This document shows, piece after piece, positions 241-38,994 of a stretch of DNA of 64,000 nt; positions within the stretch are counted from its first letter, which is position 1; each line of letters begins with the position of its first letter. The stretch spans positions 7,268-71,267 of IMG/VR virus record IMGVR_UViG_3300044617_002308; one strand, 5' to 3'. The notes under the pieces are model-generated. The model searched no databases. It worked only from the letters and a program-made list of their open reading frames with translations, and was not told the origin of the DNA. This DNA comes from a virus. The position numbers were made by a program, and so were the translations under genes.

Positions 241-259
241 TTGTCTATTGTCTCGGCAA
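241..259 (-). promoter_or_regulatory. 19-bp box (minus-strand consensus YTGCCGARACRATHGACAA), upstream of the portal-like gene
   Basis: + strand ttgtctattgtctcggcaa; overlaps the giant-gene stop codon. Confidence 0.7.
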
Positions 260-3200
260 GGTCAAATTGGCTTGCGGTTGGTTGAACATGAGTTCCGGCG
301 TGAGCGTGGAGGGTTGCTGGCGCAGGGACTTGGGCTTCGGGAACGGTCGGATGTTGACGCCCGTGGCGATCTTGAAGAGCGAAAGGAAGGGATCGCGCAC
401 GGCCACATTGTCGGGATCGGGGTAGGTGATGTAGGTGCGCGTTTCGCCGGACGGGAGTTTTTCATCGTAAACCCGCACGCTCTCCGGGCCAGCGCCCATG
501 GCTTGCAACCGGGCTAGATCGCCTGCGATGTTGCGGGTGGTCTGGCCTGCGTCGGAAACCTTCGCGGGGTTTACGCCCATGCCGAAAAGAAGTTCGCGCA
601 GATCAATGGGCGCACCGCTGGAAGAAACCGGCGTGGCGACTTGCGCGGAGAGGTTTGCCAGCGCGGCGTCTTTCTCGGCGGTGGTGAGTTTTTCGTTCGC
701 GCGGATTTTCTTCGCCTCGCGGGCCATGTAGCCGGCGCGGTCGAAATTGAGCGTGAGGCGGGCCGGGGTGATGGGATCGCCGGCGACGGGGAGGTTTTTG
801 CGCAGGCCGGGGACTTTGGCCATAATGCTTTCCAGCGGCCCCATCGTGAAGTCGAGGCTCTTGTTGCTCGTCGTGCGGCGCACCACCGGATCGGTCATGT
901 TGTTGATGTATTCGGTGAGGGCGCTGGGGTTGATCGGCGAACTGAGCGCCTCGAAAAACGCCTCGCTGGCCAAATTCACCGGGCTCTTCTTTGCATCAAT
1001 GCTGCCCACTTTGGCGATGCCCACCATGCGGCTCAGGATGCCGAGCGCGGTGAGGTCGGAAATGTAGGCTCCGGCATCGCGCAGGAAACCGGGCATGTCG
1101 CCCCGCACGGCGCGGCCCATGAGAAGACCTTCCTTCATCCAGGTCATGTTTTGGTAATACATCCAGTAGTCGTCGCCGCGATGGTTCGTGAGATCGTCGT
1201 TGATATTCACGCCCGCCATGCGAAGAGCAGTAGCCACCATGCGGCCAAGTTGGGTTTTGCGCCCGAGCGCGGAGAGGTTCATGCGGCTGCTGGTATCCTG
1301 ATCGCGGTCCTTGGCCTTGCCTTCGGCGTCGAAGCGGGAGCCGATGATCGGGTCTTCCTCGTCGTCGCCAGAGAGTAGGGCCGCGCCACCGTAGGCGATG
1401 GCGGCGAGCGTGAGCATGTTGGCCAGTCCGCGCGCGCGCTCCTGCTTGGTGGAGGAAGGCGAGAAGGTTTCAATCGCTCCATCGAGGCCCATGCGCTTCA
1501 TAAAGCGCACAAAGTTGTATGGCCACTTGATGAACCACAGGCCGTGTTCCTTGAGGAATTTTTTTCCTTTCTCTTCGGGCAGGCTCGCGGAGGGGTCCAT
1601 CCACGCCGGCACATTCGCGTAGTCCATGAAGTAAAGCCGCGCGGCGTCCATCACCTCGCGGTGGATCGCGGTGTTTTCGCGCACCTGCTTTTGAATCCAG
1701 TTGCGCATCCACTCGGAGCGCCCGCTCTTCACCTTGGCTTCGTTGGCGGCCACCTCGGCGCGGGCGCGGTAGGCCGCATAGGCGCTCTGCTGCTTCACCG
1801 CCGCATCGCCGCCGGAGTAGTGCACGGCGTAGAGGATGCTCGCGGAGATGCCACCTTGTTTGAAGGCGTTCACCAGGCCTTGCGCGGGGCCGCGCAGGAT
1901 GCCGTTGCGTTTGATGTCATCCACCATGTTGCCGTAGTCGGTGCCCGCATCGAGGCTGGAAAGCGCGGTGGTGTTGTCGAACAACTCGCGCGGGATGAGA
2001 TCGCCGATGCGCGATTGATTGAGCGTGTTCGGCGCGCGGTCGGTAATGAGGCCGCGTAGGAGGAACAGAGCCTCCATCGTATTCACTGCCGCGCCCTTGG
2101 AGTCCAGCACCATCAGGTGGGTGATGCCTGCAAACATCCGGTTCATGGCCTGCGTGAGCGTGAGAATTTGGTTGCCGATCCAGTTGATGCCTACGGAACC
2201 GGCGGCAAGTTTTCCGAGCTTCGCGCCGCGCAGGAAGAAATTGAGCGTGCGCAGGAGAATGCCTTCGGTCTGCGCGCGGGCCATGGAGAGCATGAGTTCG
2301 CGGTAAACATTTTTGTGAACCATCTGCTCGATGCCGTTGAGCCGCGCGGCGTCGCCCACCAACTTCATGAGTTGCACCTGATCCTTCGGGTTGAGCCCCT
2401 TTGAGAGGTGCGGGTAGGCTTTTTTGTCGAGCAGGCGGGCGGCTTCCACGGCCTTCACGATGCTGCTGAAGACATCCTCCAGCGCCACATAGTCGCCGAT
2501 GTTCTCGGCAGGCACATCGTCGCGCAGCACGACGGCTTTTTCGATGATGCCCTCGCGCATGCGCATACGGATTTTCTCGCGGTGGGCCTCCATCGCACGG
2601 GTGCTGAACCCATCGACAAGGTTCTTCACATTGCCGGCCTCGCGGAGCGCGCCGGTCTTGAAGCGGCGGCCAGGGGATTTGTAGATGCCCAGCAGGCGGG
2701 CGATCGTGGCGATGATCGAGCGCTGCGCGGCGATGTCGGGCGTGTAGCCCTCCACGCGCGGCACCTCGGGAAGAAGATCGCCGAAGGCATCCTTCAAATC
2801 CTGCGGCCACTCGTTCATGAAGGAGAGAAGCGCCTCGCGGTTGAACTCCACGCTCATCGTGCTGCCAAGGCCCACGGTGTAGGCATCCTTCAAGTCCGGC
2901 GTGATCCAGCGGTCGAGGATCGGGAGCGCCTCGGGGAAGTTCTGCCAGAATTCCTCGTAGATCGCCTGCTGCATTTCCACGCTGATCGGCTCCAGAAGAA
3001 CAAAGGCTTTTTCATCGGGCAGGAAGTCGCCCAGGCGGTAGGTGCGGCCATCGTATTGGAACCACTCGCCGTCGCGGAGCCGGAGCTTGCGGGCCTCCAC
3101 TTGGGAGATCGTGCCGGATCGGCGCTCGAATTCACGCCACTCGAAGCCGCCATCCACGCCCGTGCGCTGGGGTTGGAGATAGCTGGCTGTCGGGAGGAGC

Positions 3201-6200
3201 AGGCGCGTGGCTTCTTTCAGGCGAGTGCGGTTTTTGCTCCAAAATGCGGGATCGCCGAAAGCCTTTTGAAGTTCGCGGCGCAGGCCGTCCACCACGGCAT
3301 TCACGCCGATCTGGGCAAGTGCCTCCTCTTGCTGCGCGGCTTGCAGAATATTTTTCACGCCGGGGGCGAGGGCGTCGGCCACATCCAAGCGGCCACGGAA
3401 AAGGTTTTGGTAGCCGCGCCAAAGTTCGTAAGGCATGGCCTCGCGGATTTCGCCGGCGACTTTGCGCACGCTGCCCGCGGGCTTCTCCTCCGCCGCGCGC
3501 AGGACATTGTTCCAGTTCTCGATCGAGTCCAGGCTCGCCTCGATGCGCTTCTCCATCGGAGGAAGCGCGGGGCGGCGTTTGGCCCCTAATACAGCCCCGG
3601 GCTGTCTCCCCTTGGGAGTTGCTGGAACCACTCCGGCAGTTCGGCCAGCGCCTCCTCGTCCTCCAGAAGGTCGTCCAGTTCCGTCCCGATCCCGTCCGTC
3701 CGCAGGTAGCTCTCCTGCGTCATTGGCTTTTTCCGATGTTCCAAGATTATTTTCGCCGCTCCTGGCAACCTTTGCCCAGTCCGGTCGGCCCACTCCTGAA
3801 CCATCCGCAATTGCTTCTGACGCAGTTCTTCCGCGTCGCCCTTGGAGGGTGTCGCGGTTGCTCCATTCGTCGGTGAGTCGGAATATGAGATCATGGGCTT
3901 CTTTGGTGGTGATAATGCCTTGTTCGTGCTTTTTCCAGATCGCTCGGACCTTGTTGACATTCGCTTTCTGGCTCTTGAACTTCGCTGGGAAAAGTAAACG
4001 GACAGACTCCCATGTGATACTCTGGACTTCACGCGGAAGCAAGTTGAATTCCTTGGCAACGATGCGGTAGGCTTCCGCAAAGGCGGGGTAGAGTCCGCTA
4101 ATGCCGAGGTTTGCGCTGCCAGCGGCTCCGCCTTGGCCGAAATTCTGGCTGACCTCCGGGCTGTTGCCGGAGAGGGCTTGCCACAGGATGGCGGCGATGG
4201 CGTGGGTATCCATGGTGACATGGCCGTCCGGGTTCGCGGGGTCCACAATGTTGTTGTAGAACGATCGCACCTTGTGCTGAACGCCGAGTTCGGCGCTGAT
4301 CGTCTGTATCTCCGCCTCGGCTGGAGCCGAAAGGATGTTGATCGCTTTTTCAATCGTGTTGTAGCTGCCCCATGCGATGGAGCGTTGCTCGCCTTTTTCT
4401 GTGAGCATCGGGTTGCCGAAGCGGCCATCGGGTGAGACGACGGGGAAGGAGGGTGAGTCGTAAACCTCGCTCCACATGCGGATGAAGCGGGCTTGGAATT
4501 CCAGCGGAAGGTCTTTGAGTTTTTTTCCTTTGAGTTCTTCAATATCCGCCTTGGCTTCCTCAAGTTTCTCCCGCGCCTTGGCGTTGTCCCAATTCTCCCA
4601 ATCCACGATATCGCCCGCGTCGTTGGTAACCGGCTTCGCGCCTTTTTCGTAGAGGATGTTTCCTTGGGCGTCGCGCTTGTAGTCGTCTAGCTTCTTGTCC
4701 CATTGCGGCTGGGGCTCGCCGCTGCGGCGGATGTATTGGGCCGCCATGGCATCGTCGAAGATGGTGTCCTGGTGGTTGCGCCAGACATTCATCATGCGCT
4801 CGGCCAGGGCCACATTCATGAACCAATCCTTCTGCGGGCTGAACACGGCCAGCACGGCGGCGGAGCGGTTGAGCGTGGTGCCGAAGCGGGTGGCGAAATC
4901 CTGCGCGATGATGTTTGCGCCATCATACCAAAGGCGGGCGATGTCGCGGAGGTCGGCGGGGAAAAGATCGATGAGGCGCTCCAGATTGTCCACGGCCATC
5001 TCGGTGAGGGCTTGGTAAACGCTTTCGGCCATCGAAGTCGGGAACCGGCGCTCGTTGGCGAGGATGGCCTTCACCTCGTTGTCGAAGGCTTTCTTGGCGA
5101 CATCGACCTCCGTCTTGGCTTTCTCGGCGGCGGTGCGGGCGGCGTTGATGCGTGAGACCAGCCCGCGCACCTTGCGGGAGTTCTCATCCGGCTTGGCTTC
5201 GATGGCGGCATCCACGGCGGCCATCTTCACCTTCGCCTTGCGCACGCCCTGCTGGCGGGCGAGTTCGACCTGGAGCGCCTCGCGGGCTTTCTTGTGCTCG
5301 TCGGTCTTAATCTCCAATCGGGCCTGCGCCCTCACAAGCGGAGCGCGCACCTTGCGGACAAGCGCGGCGGCCTCGGGAAGGCGGCCAGCCACCAGCGGGT
5401 AGTCGGCCAGGAGCATGGCGTTCTTGCGGAACAGCGCGGGGTCTTGGCGCATGGCGTCGAGGCCCACCAGCATCGAGGCGTCCGTGCCGGAGCCGTCTGG
5501 ATTTTTGCCGGTCGGGTTGCGTGTGCCAACCGCCGTGCCTGCGACCACTTTGCCTTTTGTCTCGGCAAGGATACGCGCGGGGCGCGATTTGGCGAAGAGC
5601 GCGCCCTGTTCAATCACAGGGGCTGCTGGCGCGGGATCAAGCAAGCCTTCGCGTTGCAACTCGTTGACAATTTCGCCCGAGATCGGTTGGTTGCCTTGCA
5701 CTTGCCGCGCTTGTTGTGCGATCTGCTGCGCTTCTTTTTGCTCCACGAACCGGCCTGTGGTGGTGACAAAGCCGAAGTTCTGCGTGGGCGGGAATTCTCC
5801 GCCATCCAAGTCATACTTCGTCTCCTCCATGAGTTCTGCGTGCGTTTTGGCGGGTGAGCTTAGAACAGTGCCGTCCTTGTCGATCACGGCGGTGGCGGCT
5901 ATGCGCTCGGGCATGGCTTGTGTAGCCGGGGCAGGCTGTGCAAACAAATCCCCCACATCTTTTGTGTTGATGGCTGGCGCTGTGCTGGCTTCAACACTCG
6001 CAATCTCTCGGCTGAAGTTTTCCAGAACCGCGCTTGGGTCGTCTTCTTGGAAGAGCGCATCGGTAATCGCTTGTTCTCGCGTCTTTCCAGCAGCCACGCC
6101 ATTGAGAATCTCGCTTCTTACTTTGCTGGCGTCTGCCGTGACCATGGTGTCCGGGGCGCTTTTTGCAACAACCGCGAGCAATGGGTTGATGTTGACATCA

Positions 6201-9200
6201 GCCGCCGCTCCGAGGAAATGAATGCGCGGCGGTTTTGCTTCGGATAAAAACTCCGCAAGTTTTTCCCTGCTGACAGCCTGCGCGTTTGAAGGAATGCCAA
6301 CAATAAATTTGGATGGATCAATTGTTATTCCTTTGGAGTTGGAGTTCAGTATCTCAAGAATTTTATTGTAAGCCTGCGCAAGAGATAGTTCGCCAAGCGG
6401 AATAGGAATAATCGGAGTAAGTGCCTGCGCTTCTGTTTCGACTGCGATCCTGTCTTTGTATTTGTCTGTCAAAAGCAAGGATGCCTTTTGGTTGCCGATA
6501 ATGTCCGGCATGACCATAAGGGGCGAAGGATAGTCTTTTTCTACGGCGTTTTCTTTTTGAATCGCATCTAAAATAGAATCGTATTTTTCAAAAATTTTAT
6601 CAAAACTCAATGGCTTCAAGGTATTCCCCTTTTCAGCCTCCTTTTGAGACTTGATGAAGTGACTGAATGCCCCGGAATCGATAAAGACTTGCGCGTCGAG
6701 ATTCACCACCGCGTTGGCCAGCGCCTCTATTGCATTTTTAGACAGAAGGCCGACATCAAATCCGACTCCATAGTTCTGCATCCCGCCGCGAACAAATGTG
6801 GATGTAGCGAGGTCGCTTATTCCGCTCATGCCCGAGGCAAAGCGAACCATGTCTTTTTTGATTTTTTCTATCGGCGCATCGATTTCCCTTGTAAAACCAA
6901 ACTCTGTGGCTGTCGGCGAAGGAGCCGGGGATGATGCATCTCCAAACAAATCCTCCACATCCTCGCGCCCGCTGCGGCGGAAGGCTTCTTCGCGGGCTTG
7001 GGCGTCCACCACCGTGTCGGGCTTCACCGGCGCGGGCGGGAGCGTTTCGCCGACTAGGTTGAACGGCGTCTCGTCGCCGAAGAGTTCGCCCGTGGTGTCT
7101 GATGAGCGGCGGGGCTTGGCGAAGAGCGGAGTCTCTTGTCTTCTTTGGGCGTATTCCAACACGGGGCCAAAAACATTGCGCACCAACGGTGGAGGAACTC
7201 CATTTCCAATAATTGTGAAAGCAACATCTTGGTCGGCGGGCAAAGGATAGTCATCAGGAATACCAGTCATTCTGGCTTTTGCTCTTGGTGTCAGCCTTTT
7301 AACTATACCGCCTGGAAGAAGTATTCGATCTACGGTATTCGGAGACGCCTTAAATGTAAATGCGGGCTGGGTAGCTCTGGCAAAAGCGACCTGCTTGAAA
7401 AGAGTCGTGCCGCTCACCAACACAGGCTCGCTCACATTTAGCGGATCGGGAAAAGCGCTGCTGAATCCGTTGCCCTCTCTCCAAAGGTATTCTTGACCGG
7501 GTTTTGGTTTGTTCTCAATTACATCATCAGGCAAGTCGTCAATCAAATCAGCAATCGTTTCATACCATCCCGGCCCTTTGACCGGCGTAGGATCGGGGAG
7601 AAAAGCGGCTCCGCGAACAGCGCGGAGCAGATAGCGCCTGCGGGCGGTGGGTGCGCCGTAGTCCGCGGCGTTGTAGATGCCTTCGTCAAAGGTGTAGCCC
7701 TCGCGCTCTAGAGCCTCGCGGATGATTCCGGCAGAAATGGTCTTGCGGTATTCCCAGACATTTTCAATCGTGACCACTTGTGGCTGGATTTCCTTAATGT
7801 GGCGGGCAACCGCGCGGGCGGACTCCACATCGAGGTCTTTCTCGCCGCCGCCCTTCGCTGCGCTGTTCATAAGCGAGGAATTTTTGCAGACCGGCGAGGC
7901 GTGGTAGTGGAACGCGCCCTTGTGTTTCTCCAGCGAAACCTCGCGGATGTCGGAGACCTGGACATGATCGCCGTGCGCGGCGCGGTAGGCTTGGGCGATG
8001 GAGGCGTCGTATTCGACGGCGGCGACGGGATTCACCAAACCGCGAAGGCCGATTTCCACAAGCCCGCCACCAGAAAAGGTGGTGATGCCGCTCGGGAGTT
8101 TGGCGAGATTCGGAACTAAGTCGCTTGAGCCTCGCGCTGGCTTTGCGCCGAGAATTTGCGGTCCAGAGCTTGGTCGATTGCGCTCTGCATCCATGCGGCT
8201 TCGTGCCGCGAAAATTCCTGCTCGGTTGCGAAATCTTTCCTTGAGTAATTGCGAACCGGACCAGTTGCGCTCAAGATTGGCGATTCGGTAGATTTCACTG
8301 CCTGTAAGGGCTTCGATGGGGAATCCAAGTTCACGCTGGAATGTTTCGCTTGTGAGGCCCGCGCGGTCAAGGAGTTTTTGGGTGTCCTGCGGGCGCGGTT
8401 TGAGGTAGTTCTGGGACTGGCTGTCGGCCAGGGCGGCGGCGGCGACAACCTCGGCTCCGTTGGAGACCAGGTGGTCGATCAAAGCCGTGAGCGTGTTGCC
8501 GCTGGTGTAAACATCGTCCACCACCACATACTGCGCCGAGGGATCGACCTCGCCCTCGAAGGTCTGGATGTTGCCCATGCGCTGGGCCGCCGAGACTCCC
8601 GTGTTCGACATTCCGCCGCTCTTGACGATGCCGGTATCCACGCGGCTATTGGGGATGCGGCGTTGGAGGCTGCCAGCCAGCGCGGCGGGTAAGGCGTTGT
8701 GGAACACGCCGGGATCGGAATGCCGGACGGGGACGAAGATCACATCTTGGTCAGCATTGAGTCTGGCTTTGACTTCATCAACCATTTTCTGGGTGATGAG
8801 GGACTCGCTGATATCCACGGCGGCCACGGGGTCTCCGCCTTTCTTGGCGGCTTGGTAGGCGGGGCTGACCATGGCCAGATCGGGGGCGCGGCCTGCGATG
8901 ACGGGCGCGGGGTCAAGCTCTACGAGTTGCTCGCCTGGCTTCAGCCCGGTGGTGCGGAGTTTCGCCACTTTCGTGGACCGGGCGACGATATCAAGTGTGT
9001 CGGGGTAGTTCCCAGGAAGGGAACTGGCCGGAGCAGCGTTGCGGCGCGCCTTGGCGAACAGTGCCACGCCTTGGTCGGTCTCGCGGGTATCAAGCGTGTC
9101 GAACAGGATATCGTAGGCTTGGCGGATGCCTCCTTCCATTTCCTGCGGGAGCGGGTAGGCTTCGCCGCTGGGGTCGATGTTGGCGAGGTAGTCGTTGGTG

Positions 9201-12200
9201 ACGCTGCTCTTGGCGAGGCGTTCGACGACATAGGTTTCAAACGCGCGGGCGGCTTTCTCGATGGTGGTGCCGTAGTAGGGCGTGGAGCGGGTGGCATCGA
9301 GCTTCTTGCTGCGCTCGGCGAAGGTTCCCGTGCCCACGGCGTTGCGGATGGCGCGGAAGGCGTCCATCACGGCGGGGCGCACATTCTTGGGGTTGCGGAT
9401 CGAGTCGGTGGCGTATTCGTCCACGGCCTTGGGCGCTGTGCTTCCGGTGCGCTCCACGCGGGCGAAGTAGTTGTCGAGCGCGTGGAACCATTCGTGGGCC
9501 AAGCTGCCAGGGCCTGCGTTTTTTGTGAGGTTGATGACAACTTGGCCGGGTTCGTAATGCGCGGCGGCGGGGCGCTTGCCTCCTGTGCCTCGCGCGCCAA
9601 AGGCCATTCCAAGAGCGCCATCAAGCGAGAGCGCTTTGGTGGGGACGTTGAGCGCCTCGGCCAAGTCCATAAGGGCGTCGAAGGCGTTGTTCAAATCGCG
9701 CTGGCGGCGCTCGCCTTCCACATAGTTGCCAAATTGGACTCCACGGAAGCCGAATGCCTCGGTGAACATCTCGGGCGAGACATCGCCTTCGCGGCGGGCT
9801 GGGCCGGTGCGCGGATCGTTGAGGGCTTTGCGAAGGATCGGCTCCTTGCGCATTTCCTCCCATTGGAAGCGCAGGTTGTCGTAGTTGTCGGTGAGCCAGT
9901 TGCTCGCCTCCTTCACACTCTTGAATCCGGGCTTGAGGCGAATCACGCCGCTCGCGCCTTTTTTGCCAATGAAGATGTCTCCAGTCGTGCGGTCGCTGTA
10001 GAATTGGAAGTCGATCTTCTTGGCCTCGGCGGGCTTCGCGGCCTGCGCTTGGAGGTGGGCGCGGAATTTTTCAAGCGTTTGGCTGTAGCCGCGCCTCCAG
10101 TCGCCATCAGGGACGACGGAGGAAAGGTTCCATGCCATGCGATAGTCCTTCTCCATGTAGGAAACGATGTCGCTGGCTTTGGTGGGTTGGCCGTTGAAGG
10201 TGGTGTAGCCTTGCTTCTGGCGCAGTTTCCAGCCTTTGGCCTCCAGCATGAGCGGGTAGCCAAGAGCATCGTAAAGTTCCACTTGGTCGCGCATCTCGGG
10301 GGCGTCGGCGAGCAACAGGTTGAAGCGTTCGATGGCGATGGGGTTTGAGGGATCGACGAGGCGCTGGATGATCGTGCGCGTGCTGATCAAGCCCTCGGTC
10401 CAGCGGCGGAGCTTCCAGCCGGTCGATGGTTTTCTCGGGATCAAGTCGCGCAGGGCGCGCACGGCGGCGACACGGCGCGGCTCCATGCCGCTGGCCAACA
10501 TGGCTTCGTAGTCCGGCTCGGGGAGGAATTTCGCCAAGGTGATGTCGGCGGAATCTTCGGGCAGGTCGGCCATGATGGCGTCGGTGTATTTTTGCCAGAG
10601 GTCTTTGCGCGCGCCTTCGATCTTCTCGCCGAAGTCTTCGATGCGGGCGGTGTTCTCGGTCTGCGGCTCCAGCTTGAGTTCGGGAGCGTTCTCCACCTTC
10701 GTGTCGGCCTTGGCCTGCCAGCTTGGAGTCCAGGGTTTCGCGGTCTGGTTATAGGCGTCAGCAAAGAGATCGAGTTGCTGGGCTTGGCGGGGCTTGGCTC
10801 CCAAGTAGGTGGCCGGTTCTTCAAGAAGTCCGGCTTCTTTGAAGGAGAAATAGTTGCTGCCGTCTTCTTTCACGGCATCGATAAAGGTCACTTGCATTCT
10901 TCCTGTGACTTCGCGCAATTGCTGAACCAATCTGCCTTGCGCGAATCCAGGATCGACTCCCGCGCCTTTCAGCGTGGGCAGCAATACGGTGAAAGCATGT
11001 GCGCCTTCCCTTGAAACGGTCTGGAAAATTTGCTGGCCGAGTTCCTGTGCGGTCGGGTTTTTCTTATTAAACTGCTCGACGGCCAGAACGCGCAACTTGG
11101 TGTTGAGATAGACAATGTGTCCGGCGTCGGGATTGGACTGGCTTAATTCCTTGGCGATGGCTGCAAACTGGAAAGGCAACTCCGCCGTAGCAAGTGTATC
11201 GAATGAAACCTTTTCCCACTCCGCCTGTGTAGGGGTTTCAAACGAGCCTGATCCGAAACCCTTGAGCGAATAATACTTTGTTCCGTTGGTGATGACATGA
11301 TCGATCAGATTGAAATCCAGCGCGCTTGCGAGTTCCTCGAAGTTTTTTTGAACTCTGTAATCCGCCTGCGAGGGCGTGGGGTCGCCGCTCGGATGGTTGT
11401 GCGAGATGATAATGTTTTCGTATTTTTTGCCATACCGCTCCGAGACCCTTGCCAAAAACCCAAGAACATTGCGGGGATGCGCCATGGCTTCGTTGAGCGA
11501 GCCGACGCTGACGATCTGCGCGCTGACAATGTTCAAGTCGTCGTCCAGCACGGCCACCTTGATCATCTCATGGTAGGGCGAGCGGATCGGCATCATCAGG
11601 GCCGCGAAGTCTTTTGTCTCGGTGATCTTCGTGCCGACTGGGTTCCATGCGGGAATAGTTGAATCAACAAGCTGCGGGAGGATCGCGGAGGCGCGTCCGC
11701 GCATCGCTACGGCGTTGGCAAGTGCTTTCCAGTCGCCAGCCAGGCCGCGCTCGACGAGTTGTTCGTATTCGTCCTCGGCAACTTCCACTGGCTCGTTGGC
11801 TGGAGCGGAGCGGTCGAAAAGATCGAGTTGGTAGGTAGTCTGCCGGAATGGCGATGCGACTTGGGCAAGCTGCATGGCCACGGCATCTTCGGCGACATTG
11901 GCGGGTTGGCTGCCGTTGGCTTCGGTGTAGGCTTTCGCAGAGGCGCGCTGGGCGGCTGTGGGCTTGGCCCCAAGCACCCTGGCGTTGCCGATCTCCTCGC
12001 CGTTTTCCGCGATGATGCGGATGAGGTTTTCGTCGAAGATCACATAGTTGTAGGTGCGCTCTGGAAAATTCCGCAGGAGGTCTGCGCGCATTTTTTCCTT
12101 GGCTTTTGGCGCGTCATAGACACTCCGCATGAAGTCATCGACGGCAGCTTCCTTGTTGCCGTTATTCTTCGTGGCAAGCTCCAAAAGTCGCTCGTCCGTG

Positions 12201-15200
12201 GCGTTGAATTGCCGGCTGCCTTGGTCGGCGTAGCGGATGCCGGGGATGCCTGCGGCGAGGAGGGCTTCGGAGGCTTTCTTTGAAGCGTCAACGCCATCGC
12301 GTGAAAACTCCGCATCGGGAAATGTGGCGCGAAGTGTGCTGTATAATGCCCCGCCAACCTGCTCCCCACTTTTCCCAAAAATTGCGTCCTGCCACAACCA
12401 ATTGCCGGAGATTGATTGCAATGCTGCCTGCACCTTTGGACTTTGGTCGGAGAGCGGCTTGTCCCAATCGAGCATGTCAGCATCATCCACATCGAGTTCG
12501 ACGGCGTAGAGGTTGCCGGGTTGAGTTGTTTCTCTGCCTACGCGCGGGATAACCGCATCATAAGCAGCGATGATTCTTTCTTTGTTCGCGTAGTTATCAT
12601 CGTATTTGGTTGCATTGTCGCGTTGCTGAATAAGCCACGCTTTTAGATCGCTGGTTCCATTTGCGGGAAATGCGCCGATGTCGTTAAATACCAACCGGAC
12701 ATTTTCATCTGAACTTGATTTGAGTTTTTTGGCCAGCGTTGGAGTGATCGTTTGCCCATCAAGTGTATTCTTCTTCCGTAAATCTCCAGCCAGCCTTCTG
12801 CGGTATTCCTCCGCAGCAGCCCGCGCCTCCGCAAAATAAAGCCCCCAGCCATAAGCCTGCGCGCCCTCGCCGGTTCCGATCTTGTCGAGGCGGAAGCGGT
12901 CCACCTTGTGCGGCGTGCCGTGGTGGGCTTTTTTGAGGAACAGGATGCCGGGTTCGGTGGTAACCTCGGCGTTGGCCAAACGCACGCGGGGCTTTGCGGC
13001 TACGGCGCGTTCGCCCATGCCGTCATCGAAGTCCGTGGTGGTGCCATACATCGGGCGGTTTTCGGTGAACCGCGCATCCACCAAGTCGAGCACGTCGCTG
13101 GGCGTGAAGGTGTCGAACCCATGCCCGCGCAGGCTTTGGGCGAGCCGATCCAAGTCGGGCGCGTTTTTGCGGAAGATGCGGGAAACAAAAATGCCCTTGC
13201 CGCCGTAGGCTCCCTTGCCCATGGCTTTGGCGCTTTCAAAGAGCGTGGTGAGTTCGCCGCGGTGGCTTTCGGCGCTTTCAGAAGTGGGCGAGGGCAGTCC
13301 GCCCGCCATTTGGATGGCGTCCAAAAGCTCGAAGCCGCTGGCGCTGGCGTCTTCCATGGCTTTGTCGAGGTTGCCCGCCTCGGCTCGCAGATCGTCGAGA
13401 TACTCGCGCTGCATGGCCTCCAACTCGGCCTGCTCAGCGTCGGTTTTCATTTGCTCGGGCGTCTTGCCCATGCGCACGCGCAGGGAGCCATCCGGGCGCG
13501 GCGTGGCTTTGAGCGCGCCGAGTTGGATCATTTGCGCCCAGGAGAGCGGAGCGGAGTCGCGGTTGGTGAACCCGGCGGGGCTGGCGATGCCGGCCTTCAA
13601 TGTCAAGTCGGCGGGGGCGATGTCGCGGGTGCCATCCTGCAAGACGTCATGCACGGCGTCGATGAAGGCGGCCTGCGAGCGCAGGAGCGGGCCTTCCGGC
13701 AAGCGGCTCATGTTCATGAGGAGTGTGCCGGGGTGGAGATTCGCCATGCCGAGGCGCTTGGCCACAGCCACAGCCTGCGTGACAAGGCGGTCGAGACTCT
13801 CGGGCGTGGACTCGCCGCGCTCGCGGGCCTCGCGGAAGTCGCGCATCTGGCTCACAAAAAGCTGGTAGAATTTCGGGACGAGCTTGGCGTCTTTGTCGCT
13901 CAACTCCGGCATGCCCTCGTCCTCGGCGGCTGGATCGGCCTCCTGCTCCATCTCGGCGGCGCGGGCTTCCAGTTCGGCCTCCTTCGCGTCGAATTCGGCG
14001 GCAACGCGATTGGCCTCGGTGCGGGCCTGCGCATCGTCCGTGATCGGAATCTGCGCGGGCGTGCCTCCCTGCGGGCCGCGAACGAGGTAAAGCCGGCCAC
14101 TCTTGGTGACGCGCGGGTGGAGCGGGATGTCGGACGCGGGTTTTTCCACCGGGCCGAGTTGGGCATCGATCTCCTCCACACGCTCATTGCGGGTGAGGCG
14201 CGGGGCGATGCCCGCCTTGGCCATGAGGTCGTAGCCTTTCTGGTTGATCACGCGCTGCCCGCGGTAGATGTCCACCATGCCGCGCTGGCGCAGATCGGCG
14301 ACATCGGCCTCGCTGGCGGTGTTGCCCGCCACGGCGGCGAGTTTTTCCAAAACCGGAGCCTGCTTGGCGGCGCGCTCGGCGGCGTAGGCATCGAGCGCTT
14401 CCTGCGTGAAGAGGTAGTTGTTGCCGCGCTTCTCGGCGGGAATCACGGCGGCTTTCACTAGGCGCAGGAGTTCCTTCGGCGTGACGCCAAGGGTTTTCGC
14501 GGCTTGGGCCATTTTGATCGTGGGCGCGGCGGCTGGCTCTGTAGGCTCCGGCGGCAATGGCGGCGGGGTCGCCTCGTCTGTCACGACTTCCTGCTTCGGT
14601 GTCACGACTTCTTCCGGCGGGAGCGGGGGCGGTGTGGCTTCGACGCTCTGCACCGGCTGCACGGGCAAAGTGGTAGCAGGAGCGGGAGTCGAACCCGCGT
14701 CTCCAGGATATGAGCCTGGCAACTTAACCTCTCGTCCATCCTGCGGTGTGGAAAATTCTTGGGAAACTGGTGCAACGGCTGTCGGCGCGGCCACACGCTC
14801 GAAGAGATCGCGCACGGCTTGGGGCTTTTTGTTAAATTCTTGGATGCCTTTTTTGAACGCCGCCTTCACCTGATCAAGGTTCGTGACGAGGATCGCGGTA
14901 TCGGCTAGGCCTGAGAGGATCAGGAACGGCTGGGCCGTCATCACGCCGGAGACGAGTTTGAGCCCGATGCCCACGGTGGCGAAGATCACCTGTGGCTTGC
15001 TGAGTTTTCCGCCTTGGGCAGCGCGGTAGAGCTTGTAGGTGCCAAGGAACGAGAGTCCGCCGCCGAAAACCTCGCCGATGTTGGTCGAGAGCCAGTCGGT
15101 GGCCACGCGGTCGCTCACTGCGCCGCTCTGCACCAAAAGCTCCACGCCGGGGAGCGGCAGGCCGCTGCGGGTGAGGCTGTCTTTGAAAAGTTGGATGATG

Positions 15201-18200
15201 TAGCTCGGGACTTCGCTCCAGCCGAACTCGGCGGCCACATTGTCCACATTGGTGAAAAAGTCGTGTCCATACCACACGCGGTGCAGTCCGGGTTCGCTCG
15301 CGGCTTGGATGATCGCGTTACCGGCGGGGTTGGTGTCCGCGTTCATGGCGTCGATCCATTTCCCGATTTCGTTTCCGGGGTTGAGCTTGTCGTAGAGCGC
15401 GGTGCCGTAGTTCAGCGTCTCGCCGTAGGCCGTGTATTGGCTCGGGATGCCGGTATCGACGATCTTGTAGCCGAAGGAGCCAGCAGCGGAAGTGAGGGAG
15501 GTATTGAGGGCTTCTTGCGTCCACTTCTGCGCCCCGCGAGCGGGCTTGGGAACGAAGGCTTGGTTGCGCGGTGCGGCCTTCTCGGGCAGGCGGGTGAGCG
15601 GCGCGGCGGGAGTGTCGATTGTCTCGGCAGGCTCAACAGCAGAAACCGGCGGCGCGTTGGCCTGCTCCACGGGAGCCTCCATGGGCGAAGCAGCCTCGGC
15701 GGCGGGAGTCGCGGGCTGCGGGGTGATGCCAAGCATGGCGTCGAGTTTGGCCACTTCGGCATCGATCTTGGCGGCGGTTTGCTCAAACTCGGCGCGGGTG
15801 TCGGGATCAAGTTGGCCGAGAAGCTCCTCGCGCAGCCAGCGGGCGATGTCTTGGAGCGCTTCCTTGATGCGCTGGGCGAAGGAAGGATCGCTTTCCGCAA
15901 GTGAAGCCACCTCGGAGGCCATGTCCACCTGCTCGGTGGTGCGGCCCTCGGTGACGGCGTTCAAATACATGCGCCAGAACTCGGCTCCGGCTTGGAACTC
16001 ATCCACTTCGACTTGCGTCCAGTCGCCGCCCACGGCTTCGAGTTCGGCGGTGAAGTAGGTTTCCACCACACGCTGCTTGGCGGTGTCGGGCAGGGTTTGC
16101 CAGTCTTGGATCACCTCGGCGCGCTTGCGCACGTTCATGGTGGCGACATGGATCACCTCCTCGCGCAGGGCGGCTTTGAGTTTTTCTTGGCGGGCTTCGG
16201 GGGCGACTCCGCCCAAGTATTCCACCAGCGCGGTTTCATCGATGTAAACCTTGCCTTGATGGGCAAACATGGGCGATGGGCTCGGCGTGTAGCGGGCGCG
16301 CTCTTGCTTAGGAAGCTCGGCGTAGGTTTTGGCATCCACCACCCGGTTGCCGCGCGTGAAAAAGCGTGGCGAACGAACCACCAGAGGTGCGCTGGAAACC
16401 CACGGCGCGGCGGTTTGAAGCATGAGAAGCGCGGTGCCGCGGTTGACGGGTTGGGTGAAGACATCGGCGGTTTCCGTCTCGGGAAGCGGCGGGGGCGTTG
16501 TGTCTGCGGTTGGATCGAGGGTAGTGGTGACGCTCTCGGAAGTCGTGTCGGTAGCGCTGCCTGCCGGGGTGGTGGCCGTGTAACCTTCTTGGCCAAACTC
16601 GCCGGGTTGCACGGCATCAGGAGTCTGCGGGTTGAGCGCGTAGGCGGCCTTGTCTTCGAGCGTCTGGAAAAACTGCGTGTTCTCCGGCGTGATGGTGAAG
16701 ATCGGAGCCTCGGGGCTGGTTTGCTGCCAAGTGCCATCGGGTTGCTTCTCAAAAGTTCCGGTGACTTGCGCGCCGTCCGGGGTTTGGAAGTTTTGCGTGA
16801 CGGGCGGCGTGACAGAGATCGGAGCGGGGATTTGCGGGCCGGTGGTATTGGTTGGGGTGCTTGGCGTGACTGGCGCGGGCACTGGAGTCTCGCCAACAGG
16901 AGTCTGCGGCGTGGCAGGAGCAGGCGTTGTTGGCTGCACCGGAACAGTCGGCGTGGCGGGCGCGCTGGGGGCAGGAGCGGAAGGCGTGGTGCTGGCGGCT
17001 GGCGGTTGCGTGGAGACGCTTGGCGTGGTCGGTGTGGGCGCGGAGGGCTGAACGGGAGTTGTCGCGCTGGCGGGTTTCTTGTCGGCGATCAAAACAGGAC
17101 GGCCATTCACCATGCGAAACACGCCGCCATACTTGGCGCGGAGTTCGGCGTCGCGCTCGGCTTGCGTTTTGCGAAGCACGGGGGCTTTGGCCGTCTCGGG
17201 CGCGGCTTGTTTGATCTCCTCGCGGAATTCATCGGTGAGCACGATGTCGTCGCCGTAGGTGTAGGCGGCGGGCTTGCCGCTCGCGGTCTGGTGGCCGAGG
17301 AGCGTGGACTCCTGCGAGACGCTCAAGGGCACGCCGTTGGCGGCGCGCAGGGCGGCATCCACCACCTCGCGCTGGCCGGGGGGCAGGGCGTTGATCTCGC
17401 GGGCGGTGTTGATCGACATCTCGCTCACGGCGGCGGTGTCGAGCAGGTTGGCTTGGAGGGAGTTCTCGATGCGGGATTTTTCCGAGAGGAGTTGTTGGCG
17501 CTGCGGGTTCGGCGTGAACGGGATGTTGCCCGGGCGCACTTGCGGATCGGCGGGAAGGGCGTTGAGACGGGCATTGACATCGGCCAATTGCACCATCAAG
17601 TCCTTGCGCTGGGTGTTGAGCGTGGCAACGAACTGCGGGCTTTGGTAGTTCTGGGCCTGGCGGGCGACTTCCACCGTGAGTTGGGTGCCGGTGTTGTTGT
17701 GTTTGTTGTAGTTGGCAACGAACTTGGTGAGCGCCTTGGTTTGCGCCCGCTCGTTTAGCATTTGCTTGGTGGCGTCGTAGCCCAGGCTGACGGCTCCGCC
17801 GCCAATGGCATGAACTGGCCCCATGCCGACGCCGAGGATCGCTCCATGGATGCCTTGGTTGATGGCATCTCCGAATGATGCTCCGGCTTCGCCAAACGAG
17901 GCCACGGCTTCTTGGAAAAACTCGCCGCCGCCGGAGACGAGGGACTGCTTGCCGAAGTCCACGCTGGAGTTCCAGATTTGCTGCCCTCGGGTGAGGGAGA
18001 TGCCGGGTGTGGTTTCGATCTTGCCAAGGGTGCGCCAACTATCGGCGATGTTGTCGCCGATGCGTGAAAAGGAAGACACGGCATTGGCGGCCTTATTGAG
18101 GTTCGAGCCCACGCGGGTGGCCGCGCCCACGGCTTTCACGCCGTAAAGTGCGCCGCCTGAAACAATGCCAAGGAGGTTGACTCCCAGTTCGATGGCTTGC

Positions 18201-25571: not shown

Positions 25572-27326
25572 TCAACGGCATTCGGCGACGAGTTGGCGGG
25601 CGGGGCGGTAGTAGGCGCTGCGGCGGGCTTGGCGGGCGAGTTTGGTTTCTTCGCTCTCCATCACGCGGGCGGCGGGGAGAACATGGGCGAGGATGGCGAG
25701 GGCCATCACCCAGTCGTCGTGCGCGCCTTCGGCGGCGGCTTCGGTGCCGTCGGAATGAACGATGAAGTTGCGCAGTTCGGCGAGAATGCGCGGGCAGGGG
25801 ATTTCGAGTTCCTGTTCGCGGATCAAGGTGGCGAGTTCGCCGATGATCTGGCGCTTGGTGCTGGTGTTGGTTTGGAAGCCGGGGACCATCACGGTTTTGC
25901 CGGTGCCTTGCTTCTTGCGCATCCAGAGGTTTGCGCCGTGCCGGCGGATGAGTTCGATGATGCCGTGGAGGTTGTTGACTTCCGGGGCCATCAAGCACCC
26001 GCCGTAGAATTTGGAGAGGAGTGCGATGCGCTCGGCCACGATGTCCAAGTCTTTCTGGCGGTCGTCGGGCATGAAGGCGGCGACGATCGCGGCCTTGTGG
26101 GGTTCTTGGCTGTCGTCGATGTAGGCGGCGCGCGCGATGAGCGTGGCATGGCAGTCGCTTTCGCGGCGGGAGCCTGCGGCCTGCTCGCCGGTCATGAAGT
26201 CGTCGGCCCCGATGTAGCGGCGGCCTTCCTTGGGGAATTCCCAAATGCGCACCCAGGCTTCGTGGCGGGCGGTTTGGATGAAGGTGGGGGCGGCGGCTCC
26301 TTCGGGCTGTTCGAGGATGCCGTATTGAGGTTCTTGGCGCAGGGCGATCTGGTCGCTGAGGACATCGAGGCCTTCGGCGTCGAAGCGTCCAGAACCGCTT
26401 TGCAGAAAACAACTTATGGAGTCACTCGGATATTCTTGTTGAAACTTTCTTGGATCGCCGCCGCAGGCCGGGGAGTCGATGATTTGCCTGCGCCACTTGA
26501 GTTTGTCGGCGGTGACGCCGTGGCGTTCGACAAGGGCGATCTCGCCGTTGTAGCGGCTTTCGCTGTCGAGATCATCGAGGATCGCCTTCTCCTCGCCGGG
26601 GTGGAGCGGAGCGCGGCTGTCGTCGAATTCGAACCACGGGGCAAAGATGCGGATGTAGCCGTTGCCCTCGCGGCCCGCTTGGAATTCGGAAAAGTCCACG
26701 GCGTTTTGCCAGGTGTTGTAGAACACGCCCTGCGTTCCATTGGGTGTGGACTCGATGATCACGCAGGAGGAGGGGAGGTTCGGCACCGAGTTCATCACCG
26801 ACTGCATCACATACTCGCCGCTGGTTTTTCCTTTGGATCGGTAGTGCGCGGCTTCGGAGGCGAGGAGGAAATGGATGTCGCCGCCCATACCGGCGCGGGG
26901 ATCGTTGGCGGTTTCCTCGTAAACCTTGCTACCGTGACTGAACGCTCGCTTGCTCAAGGAGGGTTCATTGCCCCAATGCTTGAATTTGTCGTGCTCGACA
27001 TAGCGGTTCCAGGTCTCCATGAGCTTGGCGGTGGTGCCGAGGTCGTCGCCAAGCACGGCTCCGTAACCCATGTGGTTGCGTAGATGGGTGTAGGCCAGCG
27101 CGAGGGAGACGGTCGAGGAGCCTTTGCGCCGGGGTTTGAGGATGATGATCCGGCAGGGTTTCTGGTGGTCGCGGCACCAGCGGTAAACTCCGAAGACGCG
27201 CGCTTGGAAGCTATTGGCCGTTGGTCTGATCAACTCGCCAGCGCGGTTCAAAATCGTTCCGAAAACCTCGAACCAGAGTTGCGGGTCGGTGCGGATTTCG
27301 TAGGCGGCTTGTTCCTCTGGGGTCAT
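25572..27326 (-). CDS. terL: Terminase large subunit
   Basis: Walker A (IIILKPRRKGSST), Walker B (FLLASEAAH), coupling motif (IIESTPNG), RNase H-like nuclease motifs (YIGADDF...HDDWVMA). Confidence 0.93.
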   Translation of the reverse strand: MTPEEQAAYEIRTDPQLWFEVFGTILNRAGELIRPTANSFQARVFGVYRWCRDHQKPCRIIILKPRRKGSSTVSLALAYTHLRNHMGYGAVLGDDLGTTAKLMETWNRYVEHDKFKHWGNEPSLSKRAFSHGSKVYEETANDPRAGMGGDIHFLLASEAAHYRSKGKTSGEYVMQSVMNSVPNLPSSCVIIESTPNGTQGVFYNTWQNAVDFSEFQAGREGNGYIRIFAPWFEFDDSRAPLHPGEEKAILDDLDSESRYNGEIALVERHGVTADKLKWRRQIIDSPACGGDPRKFQQEYPSDSISCFLQSGSGRFDAEGLDVLSDQIALRQEPQYGILEQPEGAAAPTFIQTARHEAWVRIWEFPKEGRRYIGADDFMTGEQAAGSRRESDCHATLIARAAYIDDSQEPHKAAIVAAFMPDDRQKDLDIVAERIALLSKFYGGCLMAPEVNNLHGIIELIRRHGANLWMRKKQGTGKTVMVPGFQTNTSTKRQIIGELATLIREQELEIPCPRILAELRNFIVHSDGTEAAAEGAHDDWVMALAILAHVLPAARVMESEETKLARQARRSAYYRPARQLVAECR

Positions 27327-32687: not shown

Positions 32688-33127
32688 CGATGCTTGGCGG
32701 TTTTGGCGGCGATTTTCTTGGGTTGGCTGGCGAATTGCTCCCCGGCGCGGGTCGCTTCGCGCTTGGCTTGGCTGGTGGCGCGGTATTCGGCGGGCGTGAG
32801 GGCGGCAATCGCGCGCTTGGGCAGGTAACGCTCGCCCGTGGCCTCGGGCCCTTGGGTGCTGGGCTTGCCGCTCTTGGTTCCCCATTTTTCGCGGGTCCAT
32901 TTGTCGAGGCTTTTCTGGGGCGCGGCCTTCCCGCTGCGGTAGCCGCCACCGGCTTTCTTGTATTCGGCGGCGAGCATCTGGGCCTTGCGGGCGCTCCATT
33001 GGCCCGGTGCCCCGCCCTTGTCGCCGGCGAGGAGGCGGTTTTTGAGGCGCTCTCGGAGCGCGGGCTGGGTGTAGGTGGGTTTTTTCATGTCACAGGCTTT
33101 GCATCCGCAGGGTTTCCCGGCTTTCAT
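32684..33127 (-). CDS. Basic phage protein, DUF5872-like
   Basis: YTQPALRERLK...GDKGG.PGQWSARKAQMLAAEYKKAGGGY...QKSLDKWTREKW...GERYLP; family name recalled from memory. Confidence 0.7.
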   Translation of the reverse strand: MKAGKPCGCKACDMKKPTYTQPALRERLKNRLLAGDKGGAPGQWSARKAQMLAAEYKKAGGGYRSGKAAPQKSLDKWTREKWGTKSGKPSTQGPEATGERYLPKRAIAALTPAEYRATSQAKREATRAGEQFASQPKKIAAKTAKHR

Positions 33128-33447
33128 GGTTCCTTCACAAAGGTTCCCTCGGGCGTGAGATAGCCTTTGCGGTCCTTGATCTCCTCGTAGGCGCTGGCGA
33201 GGCAGTCGGTGAGCTTCAGTCCGCGGATCGCGGCGTAATTGATCAGGCACACCAGCACGTCGCCGAGGCCGTCGATCACTCCGGCGGTGTCGTGCTTGGC
33301 GTGGGCGTCGGCCAGTTCGCCCATCTCGGCGATGGCTTTCAAAAGCTGGCTGGTTGTGGTCGAGTTCTGGATGATCTGGCGGGCTTTCGCCCAGGCGATC
33401 ACGCTGGCTTCGAGGGTTTCGTAGGTGGTTGGGTTCATGGTTTGCAT
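33124..33447 (-). CDS. MazG-like NTP pyrophosphohydrolase
   Basis: VIAWAKARQI...QLLKAIAEMGELA...DGLGDVLVCL...AYEEIKDRKG...GTFVKE. Confidence 0.85.
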   Translation of the reverse strand: MQTMNPTTYETLEASVIAWAKARQIIQNSTTTSQLLKAIAEMGELADAHAKHDTAGVIDGLGDVLVCLINYAAIRGLKLTDCLASAYEEIKDRKGYLTPEGTFVKEP

Positions 33448-33911
33448 TAAAAAACTTCCTGCGGATCGCAAAACCGCACATGCTTCACCGGCACGGTGTA
33501 GTTGCGGCATTTGCGGCCCTGCTTGGCGTCGAAAACCTCTTCGATCTGCCAGTGCCGGCGCGTCCACCCGTAAACCACCGCGGCGGCGGTGCGCTCCGCG
33601 TTCTCGATCACATAGGCGAAAACCGGATCGCCGGCCTTGGTTTCCACCTTGTAGGCTTCGTCCACGATCACGGTCGGGTAGGGGTAGTCTTCGCGGGAGC
33701 GGAAATGCAGGTTGCGCACCTTGTGCTCCACGCGGCCCTGCACCATCAGGTCTCCGGCGTCCGCATACTCCTCCCGCTGCGCCGCATCCGGGCGCGTCCG
33801 CTGGGGCGGCAGCCAGACCTTCAAGCCCTTTTGCCGCAATTTGTCGGCAAAGTCGTTCACCGCCCTGCGGCTGGAATCCAAATCGTTGAGAAAATCCTTG
33901 TCGCTTTTCAC
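33447..33911 (-). CDS. Putative PD-(D/E)XK nuclease
   Basis: DAGDL...RVEHKVR pattern. Confidence 0.6.
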   Translation of the reverse strand: MKSDKDFLNDLDSSRRAVNDFADKLRQKGLKVWLPPQRTRPDAAQREEYADAGDLMVQGRVEHKVRNLHFRSREDYPYPTVIVDEAYKVETKAGDPVFAYVIENAERTAAAVVYGWTRRHWQIEEVFDAKQGRKCRNYTVPVKHVRFCDPQEVF

Positions 33912-34135
33912 TTGGGCGTCTCAGCGGGGTGGTATTTTTCAAGCATCGCGTGCGCGATGTCCTCGATGGCGTGGGCGAGGTGAAAAAGCGCCCAGTCCTG
34001 GCGGGTAAGGGGCTCGGGCGGCTGGTTCTTCCCGGCGCAGATGTCGCGGGCGATCGAACAGGAGAGTTTTGCGCGGTAGAGTTCCGCGCTGCGGGCGAGT
34101 TCGCCGAGCTTTTTGGGTGAGCGGGGTTGGCTCAT
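33908..34135 (-). CDS. Hypothetical protein
   Basis: 75-aa ORF downstream of a 19-bp box. Confidence 0.6.
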   Translation of the reverse strand: MSQPRSPKKLGELARSAELYRAKLSCSIARDICAGKNQPPEPLTRQDWALFHLAHAIEDIAHAMLEKYHPAETPK

Positions 34136-38640: not shown

Positions 38641-38656
38641 AATTTTGGGGTTTCAT
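37322..38656 (-). CDS. C5-cytosine DNA methyltransferase (catalytic, alpha-type frame)
   Basis: Motifs I (LCAGYGG), IV (GYPCQPFS), VI (FENVEG), VIII (HQRKRVFI) and X (RLLGNGV). Confidence 0.9.
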   Translation of the reverse strand: MKPQNYVDNPKTITHIGLCAGYGGIEIGLHRVIRNLRTVALCEIEAFACANLVSKMEAGLMDCAPIWTDLKSFPWAEFRDRVDILTGGYPCQPFSAAGKRLGTEDPRHLWPFIADGIRLLRPRLCYFENVEGHISLGLREVIGELESIGYQTAWGIFSASEVGAPHQRKRVFILAHDQRQRVEELGWQIAGASQFDSAWNDGADAGCGELGDTLRPDGRITDQTEQTGTNGRRQAGDTSCHANIWPSRPGEPQHGWEPPRVVVDAKSQRANRRLDLCVEERRPRPALQPKSDNTGREDGPMGNAPQRQDHGREPRDMGSEAGQGRCGDHAADGAGEVLGHPNSPRPQERTGQRGAGIQGTHADGGEDAERQTQPSLGGDAPSGPARLDEPGLPALGDSELAEIYEWMERCTNRTDELRLLGNGVCVTTGELAYRTLFSELCRND

Positions 38657-38661
38657 AATGT

Positions 38662-38680
38662 TTGCCAATCGTCTCGGCAA
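38662..38680 (-). promoter_or_regulatory. 19-bp box upstream of the MTase
   Basis: + strand ttgccaatcgtctcggcaa, 5 nt before ATG 38656. Confidence 0.7.
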
Positions 38681-38682
38681 GA

Positions 38683-38994
38683 TCAAAACGGAATGTCGTC
38701 GCCGGCGTCGTCCTGGGCGCGGCCTTCGTAGCGTTGGGCGGGGGGTTTGGAGCGGGCGGGTTGCTCGTTTTCCCAGCCGAATTTTTTCTTGGCGCTGCCG
38801 ATGTAAATTTTCGGAGACTTGGCGGTGCGCTCCTCTTTGGTTTGCGCCATGCTCACGCTGGCATCGTTGCCGAATTTGTCCGGCTCGTCGTTGAGCCAGA
38901 TGTCGGCATCGAGGTAGGTGCCTTTTTCGCCCTTGAAGAGGCGGTTTTTGTCGATTTTGGTGACGTCGATTTTGATGGTGATGAGTTTGCTCAT
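38683..38994 (-). CDS. Single-stranded DNA-binding-like protein
   Basis: KIDVTKIDK...GEKGTYLD...DKFGND..., acidic tail DDAGDDIPF; next to dnaB. Confidence 0.7.
   Translation of the reverse strand: MSKLITIKIDVTKIDKNRLFKGEKGTYLDADIWLNDEPDKFGNDASVSMAQTKEERTAKSPKIYIGSAKKKFGWENEQPARSKPPAQRYEGRAQDDAGDDIPF

Follow-up and report, generated by a model that had tools for sequence, protein, structure and literature searches.

A short peptide with an L-x-A-K core recurs at eight sites in P0001, a phage-type polyvalent protein of 7,029 amino acids (aa), and these sites enclose the seven modules of its variable cargo region. P0001 is the longest open reading frame (ORF) of the 64,000-nucleotide (nt) stretch of DNA analyzed here (positions 7,268 to 71,267 of IMG/VR virus record IMGVR_UViG_3300044617_002308; referred to as the window). 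It occupies window positions 245 to 21334 on the minus strand, the strand of all P0001 features given below. Alignments with related giants place the peptide at the boundaries of cassettes that are gained, lost, or swapped between phages. We see about an even chance that the junction peptides are protease processing sites, possibly cut by a zincin carried in the same protein.

P0001 has a conserved N-terminal part (aa 1 to 2777), the variable cargo (aa 2778 to 5921), and a conserved C-terminal domain (aa 5922 to 7029). All eight sites had been picked out in a sequence-only reading of this DNA and were recovered where that reading had placed them; they lie in the cargo region, and none was found within aa 1 to 2777 or aa 5922 to 7029. 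Seven match the strict pattern L[GF]AK[PASR], compared with a mean of 0.12 and a maximum of 3 in 5000 shuffles of the protein and an analytic expectation of 0.13. The eighth, VAAKPR, is a degenerate copy. Scanned in all six frames, the window yielded nine matches, namely, the seven in P0001, one at position 30885, which was discarded because its frame differs from that of the gene called there, and one in the capsid protein (position 56288). The capsid sequence (SLGAKPV, aa ∼193, window 56268 to 56288) fits the junction pattern and was kept in 11 relatives as SLAAKPV, or as SNGGKPM in distant ones. Lying in the middle of a capsid-family match (Pfam Phage_capsid_3, residues 165 to 257), it was rejected as a junction site and is probably structural, a part of the fold. 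The other 65 ORFs (15,975 aa) contained four matches to a relaxed form of the motif, none of them where the capsid, portal, or putative scaffold protein starts.

That the motif brackets the enzyme modules almost one for one, as the earlier reading had claimed, agreed with the Pfam domains located between consecutive sites: eight sites surround seven modules of 297 to 664 residues, each with one Pfam enzyme family or none. Junction 1 (VAAKPR; aa 2778 to 2783, window 12986 to 13003) precedes module M1 (aa 2784 to 3120, window 11975 to 12985), which is ART-PolyVal-like by a match below the cutoff (aa 2801 to 2846; Pfam E value, 0.005). Junction 2 (LGAKPT; aa 3121, window 11957 to 11974) leads into M2 (aa 3127 to 3510, window 10805 to 11956), with a RadC-like JAB domain at aa 3239 to 3359 (Pfam E value, 3.7e-25). 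After junction 3 (LGAKPR; aa 3511, window 10787 to 10804), with the sequence QLDLF 8 residues on, comes M3 (aa 3517 to 4091, window 9062 to 10786), which contains LPD5 (aa 3752 to 3860), a zincin with HEWFH at aa 3947, and LPD1 (aa 4012 to 4084); a match to NCBIfam CLCA_X of 135 bits, below the 260-bit cutoff, spans the zincin with HEWFH, located between the two LPD domains. Junction 4 (LFAKAR; aa 4092, window 9044 to 9061) is followed by M4 (aa 4098 to 4394, window 8153 to 9043), a phosphoribosyltransferase (PRTase match, aa 4219 to 4309). Junction 5 (LGAKPA; aa 4395, window 8135 to 8152) separates M4 from M5 (aa 4401 to 4736, window 7127 to 8134), a C5 cytosine DNA methylase (aa 4418 to 4722; Pfam E value, 4.4e-22). 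Beyond junction 6 (LFAKPR; aa 4737, window 7109 to 7126) lies M6 (aa 4743 to 5245, window 5600 to 7108), made up of a leader with ELFG and DLFG, submodule M6a (aa ∼4800 to 5128), DLFA (aa 5129 to 5132, window 5939 to 5950), and the small submodule M6b (aa 5136 to 5245). Junction 7 (LFAKSR; aa 5246, window 5582 to 5599) precedes M7 (aa 5252 to 5915, window 3590 to 5581), with DUF7178 from about aa 5467, and junction 8 (LGAKRR; aa 5916, window 3572 to 3589) adjoins the C-terminal domain (window 248 to 3571), for which Atlas features gave an LPD38-like lead only. The JAB (RadC), LPD1, PRTase, and methyltransferase labels of the earlier reading were upheld by Pfam and its ART label weakly so; "TGT-like" and "glycosylase-like" were not confirmed. 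For M6a, Atlas gave a weak lead to DpdA (aa 4800 to 5129; score, 0.91; DpdA on 17% of one cluster), and PDB sequence searches with M6a and M7 gave no match at an E value of <0.3.

The conserved object at these sites is the peptide rather than the DNA. In pairwise comparisons the eight 18-nt cores had 8 to 15 of 18 bases in common, leucine was encoded by five codons (CTT, TTG, CTG, CTC, and TTA) and glycine by three, and glycine and phenylalanine alternated; this variation between sites places the selection at the protein level. Short DNA homology junctions had also been put forward as the reason for the motif, and the same figures speak against them. A purely recombinational junction, i.e., shared DNA without a peptide function, would fit the breakpoints described below and the RecT and PDDEXK-nuclease pair of the phage, but we consider it very improbable given that the peptide is kept as synonymous codons vary, that the flanks of the sites are unrelated, and that neither promoter-like signals (4 versus 2.6 expected) nor terminator-like signals (12 versus 15.8 expected) were enriched in the linkers or the region.

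Relatives were searched for with aa 2770 to 5930 among proteins of 3,865 to 12,301 aa, giving 24 matches. Only P0003 (82% identity over 42% of the query) carried the strict motif, in five copies, and the other 22 had none; with position 2 widened to G, F, S, or A, P0003 had eight copies. A further protein, R3, of at least 7,753 aa as pieced together from two loci that overlap on a single IMG/VR contig, had eight junction copies. P0001, P0003, and R3 together hold 24 to 25 sites, 8 to 9 of them in each of the two relatives. Lysine was found in all 26 of those tabulated, alanine in 25 of 26, and leucine in 23 of 26, and the consensus over the three proteins is [VPIA]-L-[FGSA]-A-K-[PAS]-R-[PR].

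The ends of the alignment blocks between P0001 and P0003 (aa 2228 to 4098, 4736 to 5135, 5242 to 5922, and 5918 to 7029) fell on the sites at 4092, 4737, 5246, and 5916, and within the first block identity rose from ∼50% to 94 to 100% at the site at 3121 (LGAKPT). P0003 carries one ∼180-aa module in place of the PRTase and methylase and, after site 5916, an additional ∼200-aa module with its own terminal LSAKPS. R3 has two additional modules between M3 and M4, with LFAKAR at the end of each, and reads AVASKTPR at junction 1, followed by a ∼110-aa insertion. Junction 4 was a breakpoint against both relatives and junctions 6 and 7 against P0003. Overall, 8 of 14 BLAST segment ends lay ≤6 aa from a site (chance, 4.5% each; binomial, 4e-8, with ends at one joint not being independent). 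Of the remainder, four were ≤12 aa from a [DE]LF[GAD] site, and the last two were 9 and 11 aa from L-x-A-K. The [DE]LF[GAD] sequence occurs seven times in P0001 (0.66 expected), five of these within the cargo region, with sites at window positions 5939 to 5950, 6941 to 6952, and 7076 to 7087. The first of these is the DLFA between M6a and M6b, on which breakpoints against P0003 as well as R3 fall. In P0001 and R3 alike, M6b comes after DVGDLFA, but the two proteins have it on opposite sides of M6a. To judge by its placement, [DE]LF[GAD] serves as a further type of junction. The breakpoints of module gain, loss, and swapping in P0003 and R3 therefore map onto the motif, a check that the sequence-only reading had proposed, and by these alignments the motif marks cassette boundaries.

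AlphaFold2 (AF2) models were made for aa 4085 to 4800 (58 alignment rows) and for M3 (aa 3511 to 4120; 68 alignment rows; mean predicted local distance difference test score [pLDDT], 87). In the first, the methylase was modeled at a pLDDT of 94 to 98. LGAKPA at 4395 was in coil with a pLDDT of <50 between the M4 and M5 domains (pLDDT, >90), and LFAKPR at 4737 lay 3 residues past the last methylase helix, where pLDDT fell from 94 to 59 and then 46. In the M3 model, the preceding junction and the N-terminal QLDLF had a pLDDT of ∼40, and order ended from about aa 4105.

Free-standing homologs of two modules differed at the position of the peptide. Of the 14 best zincin-LPD1 homologs (P0126 to P0139), 13 ended 3 to 8 residues past GVxLF[AT]KPRR, and P0131 was not aligned to the end. 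One free-standing LPD5-zincin-LPD1 protein (L097:9890-11422), with terminal LFTKPRRKML, has as its neighbors a DEAD helicase and an oxidoreductase as well as the molybdopterin genes for MoaE and MoaA. The DEAD-box helicase beside free-standing P0130 ends in FGAKKKRR, which was taken as a chance basic tail. There were 105 free-standing methylase homologs, 92 of which aligned to the module end. Among the matches listed from these 92, the tail was present in 0 of 45, which ended at or within ∼10 residues of ...GPLLEAA, and methylase homologs ended ∼9 residues short of the tail position. A regular expression for the tail matched 4 of the 105, in each case within an internal LAAK(I/V)xGN box. With the tail intrinsic to the zincin-LPD1 module and not to the methylase, these comparisons make the junction peptide look as though the tail of the zincin module had been copied and set behind other enzymes.

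The C-terminal 1,110 aa of P0001 were also C-terminal in 99 library proteins, whose lengths range from 1.1 to 7 thousand aa. Using exact 4-mer enrichment together with aligned module ends, other peptides were found in giants of other lineages, with flanks unrelated between copies: [YF]ALDP in P0066 (six copies) and P0062 (four), [YF]SQFG in P0014 (five), [AY]TQFG in P0010 and P0011 (three each), [YF]SVQ in P0082 (three) and P0078 (five), FSLA in P0103 (three), and INSR in P0009 (six). TQFG (3 versus 0.03 expected) and YSVQ (3 versus 0.013) would not alone survive correction for multiple testing, and a one-wildcard 5-mer enrichment screen of 63 giants was too insensitive, P0001 itself not being flagged. 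In those of these giants that were scanned with Pfam, domains again fell between the copies. In P0066, LPD1 ends at 2309 with a motif at 2321, and ART (2593 to 2732) lies between motifs at 2558 and 2759; ART lies at 3201 to 3356 in P0011 (motifs at 3151 and 3383) and at 391 to 500 in P0082 (motifs at 353 and 526), and ASCH lies at 462 to 515 in P0078 (motifs at 445 and 579). The end of LPD1 reads LFAKAR in P0001, L[FY]ALDP in P0062 and P0066, and LFSQS, LYAPP, or IYEP elsewhere (11 M3 ends). The ART end, LSxRF[DN]...[DS]I, is followed by LFAKAR, RFALDP, RYSQFG, RYTQFG, RYSVQ, LYASSP, or others (17 cases). A common [LR]-[FY]-[AS] core with a lineage-specific continuation was seen at the 11 M3 ends and most of the 17 ART ends. 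Viral polyprotein cleavage codes show this pattern, each lineage having a peptide of its own at the same joints. In another uncultured phage (L019:1049-16144), a 740-aa ORF comes after a giant of 5,032 aa, whose LPD1 module has TALYSRG at its end and in which a second copy, QALFSRR, precedes DLFE.

If the peptides are processing sites, the giant would be a cargo polyprotein in which unrelated enzyme modules stand between the conserved N-terminal part and the LPD38-like C-terminal domain. The enzyme string would most likely be packed inside the head of the phage and injected, and the junction peptide would serve as an endoprotease recognition site at which the string is cut, after packaging or after injection, to free the enzymes. 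The most likely cutter in this lineage would be the giant's own M3 zincin, whose C-terminal tail would be the archetype, with copies having been added to modules whose free-standing relatives are without a tail. As every module would bear the same tail, recombinants joined at the tail would stay functional, which would explain why swap breakpoints are found there. The HExxH of the M3 zincin is intact (HEWFH), and the module has the subthreshold match to CLCA_X noted above; CLCA proteins self-cleave. Iyer et al. (2017; PMC5512222) predicted, in the part of that work available to us, that zincins process polyvalent proteins into functional units, and the same part favors nucleic acids as the target of RadC. 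The RadC/JAB domain had been named alongside the zincin as a possible processing protease, and nothing pointed there. A further domain, N3 (aa 1638 to 1895, window 15650 to 16423), reads EEVIH in P0001. In 14 giants it has EExxH in 11 and HExxH in 3 (P0036, P0005, and P0054), so that it looks like a zincin-derived domain in which the first histidine has mostly been lost, possibly inactive in P0001. A complex prediction of M3 (aa 3556 to 4104) with a 41-aa peptide from the M5/M6 junction returned scores of 0.00 and 0.00, which is no answer and counts neither way.

The peptide might also be cut by a separate phage head-maturation protease or a host protease, and other giants with junction motifs are without the M3 zincin, some without any HExxH. 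Head proteases, such as T4 gp21 and the phiKZ-like gp175, trim packaged, injected phage proteins at a short consensus ending in Glu. The genome, which is rated complete, argues against such an enzyme. Apart from P0001, Pfam and PHROGs scans of 34 ORFs revealed no peptidase family, a result that divergent proteases may escape, and six-frame searches for Peptidase_Prp (PF04327), S78 (PF04586), and ClpP (PF00574) gave 0 matches each. The scarcity of the relaxed motif in the other 65 ORFs and its absence from the start of the capsid, portal, and putative scaffold proteins point the same way, and we regard a separate protease as rather unlikely. A resemblance of the peptide to the Prp/L27 cleavage motif was dropped, as the Prp family had 0 matches in the genome. 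The substrates described for T4 gp21 and phiKZ-like gp175, as far as the available parts of the sources go (PMC10052503 and PMC5694885), resemble P0001 in having a short consensus in packaged, injected proteins and differ in ending in Glu rather than in carrying L-x-A-K. P0001 further differs in that a head protease was not found and that the capsid and portal ends have no signal.

Several observations weigh against processing or against the M3 zincin as its agent. Cleavage of P0001 and its relatives, as well as the enzyme and the moment of cutting, is something we infer and have not observed, and the exact motif was found in three genomes only. An M3-type zincin core was present in only 17 of the 124 proteins searched. 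It was absent from the motif-bearing giants P0014, P0010, P0011, P0082, P0078, P0009, and P0025, and P0078, P0009, and P0103 were without any HExxH, so the zincin cannot be a universal reader of such peptides. A Foldseek search of the PDB with the M3 model gave no match at an E value of ≤0.001; its top rows, a zincin toxin protease (E value, 1.7e-3; TM about 0.2), were too weak for use. The available part of the phi24B preprint (10.64898/2026.04.10.717836) reports no processing of gp47, a related virion protein described below. Location inside folded domains had been named as a result that would count against cleavage; the motif was outside them at 4395 and 4737, but at 4092 its hydrophobic half is the module's last strand, VALFA (aa 4090 to 4094) being the second strand of the terminal LPD1 hairpin in the M3 model and structured rather than a free linker. 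The site recurs at each junction, with two of the eight lying in coil and one forming a terminal strand. Finally, in free-standing zincin-LPD1 proteins, one of them in an ordinary bacterial chromosome context, the tail lies 3 to 8 residues from the protein's own end, where cutting would release little, and this fits a nonproteolytic function equally well.

The last two observations lead to the principal alternative, in which no cutting takes place and the peptide tags the ends of modules as a short terminal strand with a basic patch, used for threading or unfolding during ejection, for docking of a partner, or for capping of the fold. The VALFA strand, the 13 free-standing proteins ending in the tail (one among cellular genes), and the [LR]-[FY]-[AS] core at the ends of LPD1 and ART-PolyVal modules across many lineages would all suit an uncut tag. 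It is harder to reconcile with a tail having been added to a methylase whose free-standing relatives have none, with the low-confidence coil at two junctions, and with the lineage-specific residues after the core, which suggest a coevolving reader rather than a requirement of the fold; moreover, no partner is known. An uncut tag is, in our estimate, possible, at something like a quarter of the weight of belief.

By its predicted domains, P0001 belongs to the polyvalent proteins as described by Iyer et al. (2017; PMC5512222). Over aa 2276 to 5600, Pfam identified HTH_17, RadC, LPD5, LPD1, PRTase, DNA_methylase (C5), and DUF7178 above the cutoff in this single ORF, together with a weak ART-PolyVal match. 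LPD5 scored 90.6 bits and LPD1 48.2 bits (cutoffs, 27), and the LPD domains are accompanied by the zincin-like metallopeptidase typical of such proteins. The giant is encoded among virion and packaging genes, with a portal-like gene directly downstream (L001:5320-7491), a terminase-like gene upstream (window 25572 to 27326), and the capsid gene further round the genome (window 55380 to 56864). In the available text of Iyer et al. (PMC5512222), polyvalent proteins likewise combine unrelated effectors in one chain, including LPD1, LPD5, ART-PolyVal, PRTase, methylase, and an internal zincin, and are encoded among head genes; in contrast to P0001, a phage protein, RadC occurs there only in proteins of conjugative elements. 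No junction or cleavage-site peptide was found in that text, supplements aside, and the literature searched yielded no description of such peptides at the junctions of polyvalent proteins. According to the available part of the preprint, phi24B gp47, a 2,811-aa LPD5/LPD1/LPD38 protein, was detected in virions by mass spectrometry and proposed as an ejection protein (10.64898/2026.04.10.717836). By analogy with it, P0001 may be delivered into the host with the DNA. The zincin-LPD1 module of gp47 is homologous to that of P0001, and in the related Stx2 phage 86, the corresponding module of gp35 has GVAFYSRK at its end; unlike in P0001, a recurring junction peptide was not found in this phage 86 homolog.

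In polyproteins of RNA viruses, every joint bears a short peptide specific to the protease; this peptide varies from lineage to lineage and allows modules to be exchanged, and the protease lies within the chain. P0001 shares with these the short peptide at each joint, the lineage differences, the module exchange, and a protease domain in the chain; it differs in belonging to a DNA phage, in that effectors for injection, and not replication or capsid proteins, would be released from it, and in that cleavage is so far deduced. QLDLF, which we take to be the bacterial sliding-clamp-binding consensus, occurs three times in P0001 (0.005 expected), at window positions 10760 to 10771 and 11813 to 11824 and at aa 694 to 698. 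Two of the three are in a linker just after a junction peptide, and the same places are kept in P0003 and R3. A bolder version of the processing model, with a private, fast-evolving cleavage code as in RNA-virus polyproteins, self-templated from the zincin tail, and with linkers that are released along with each module and carry QLDLF or DLF[GA] as a second signal, of which QLDLF could steer the freed enzymes to the host replisome, is speculative, and we hold it to be unlikely.

The record is 71,267 bp long, rated 100% complete, and classed as linear, and the window covers most of it. It has an imperfect terminal direct repeat (positions 1 to 203 and 71065 to 71267 of the record); the first 50 and last 100 bases were found again ∼203 bp from the opposite end, and longer probes were not. 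In the public protein collection the giant gene is present only as the 4,807-aa P0002, which starts at an internal Met (aa 2223), and the start of P0003 likewise corresponds to aa 2228; such giants seem to be cut short by gene callers. In a phage collection searched for a cultured relative, the C-terminal domain and the capsid protein had 0 matches each. Elsewhere in the window are the RecT and PDDEXK (DUF3799) recombination pair (45100 to 47018), a second, free-standing C5 methylase (37322 to 38686), a DnaB-like helicase (39173 to 40669), and a MazG-like ORF (33124 to 33942).

Polyvalent proteins are regarded as the weapons that a phage delivers first, and how a 770-kDa chain of enzymes whose targets differ is activated has so far only been guessed at. 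A defined junction peptide makes the processing hypothesis of 2017 directly testable and provides a rule for splitting such giants into functional units during annotation. A junction code would also explain the free exchange of modules between related phages and, if it is lineage specific, would give a handle on which protease reads it.

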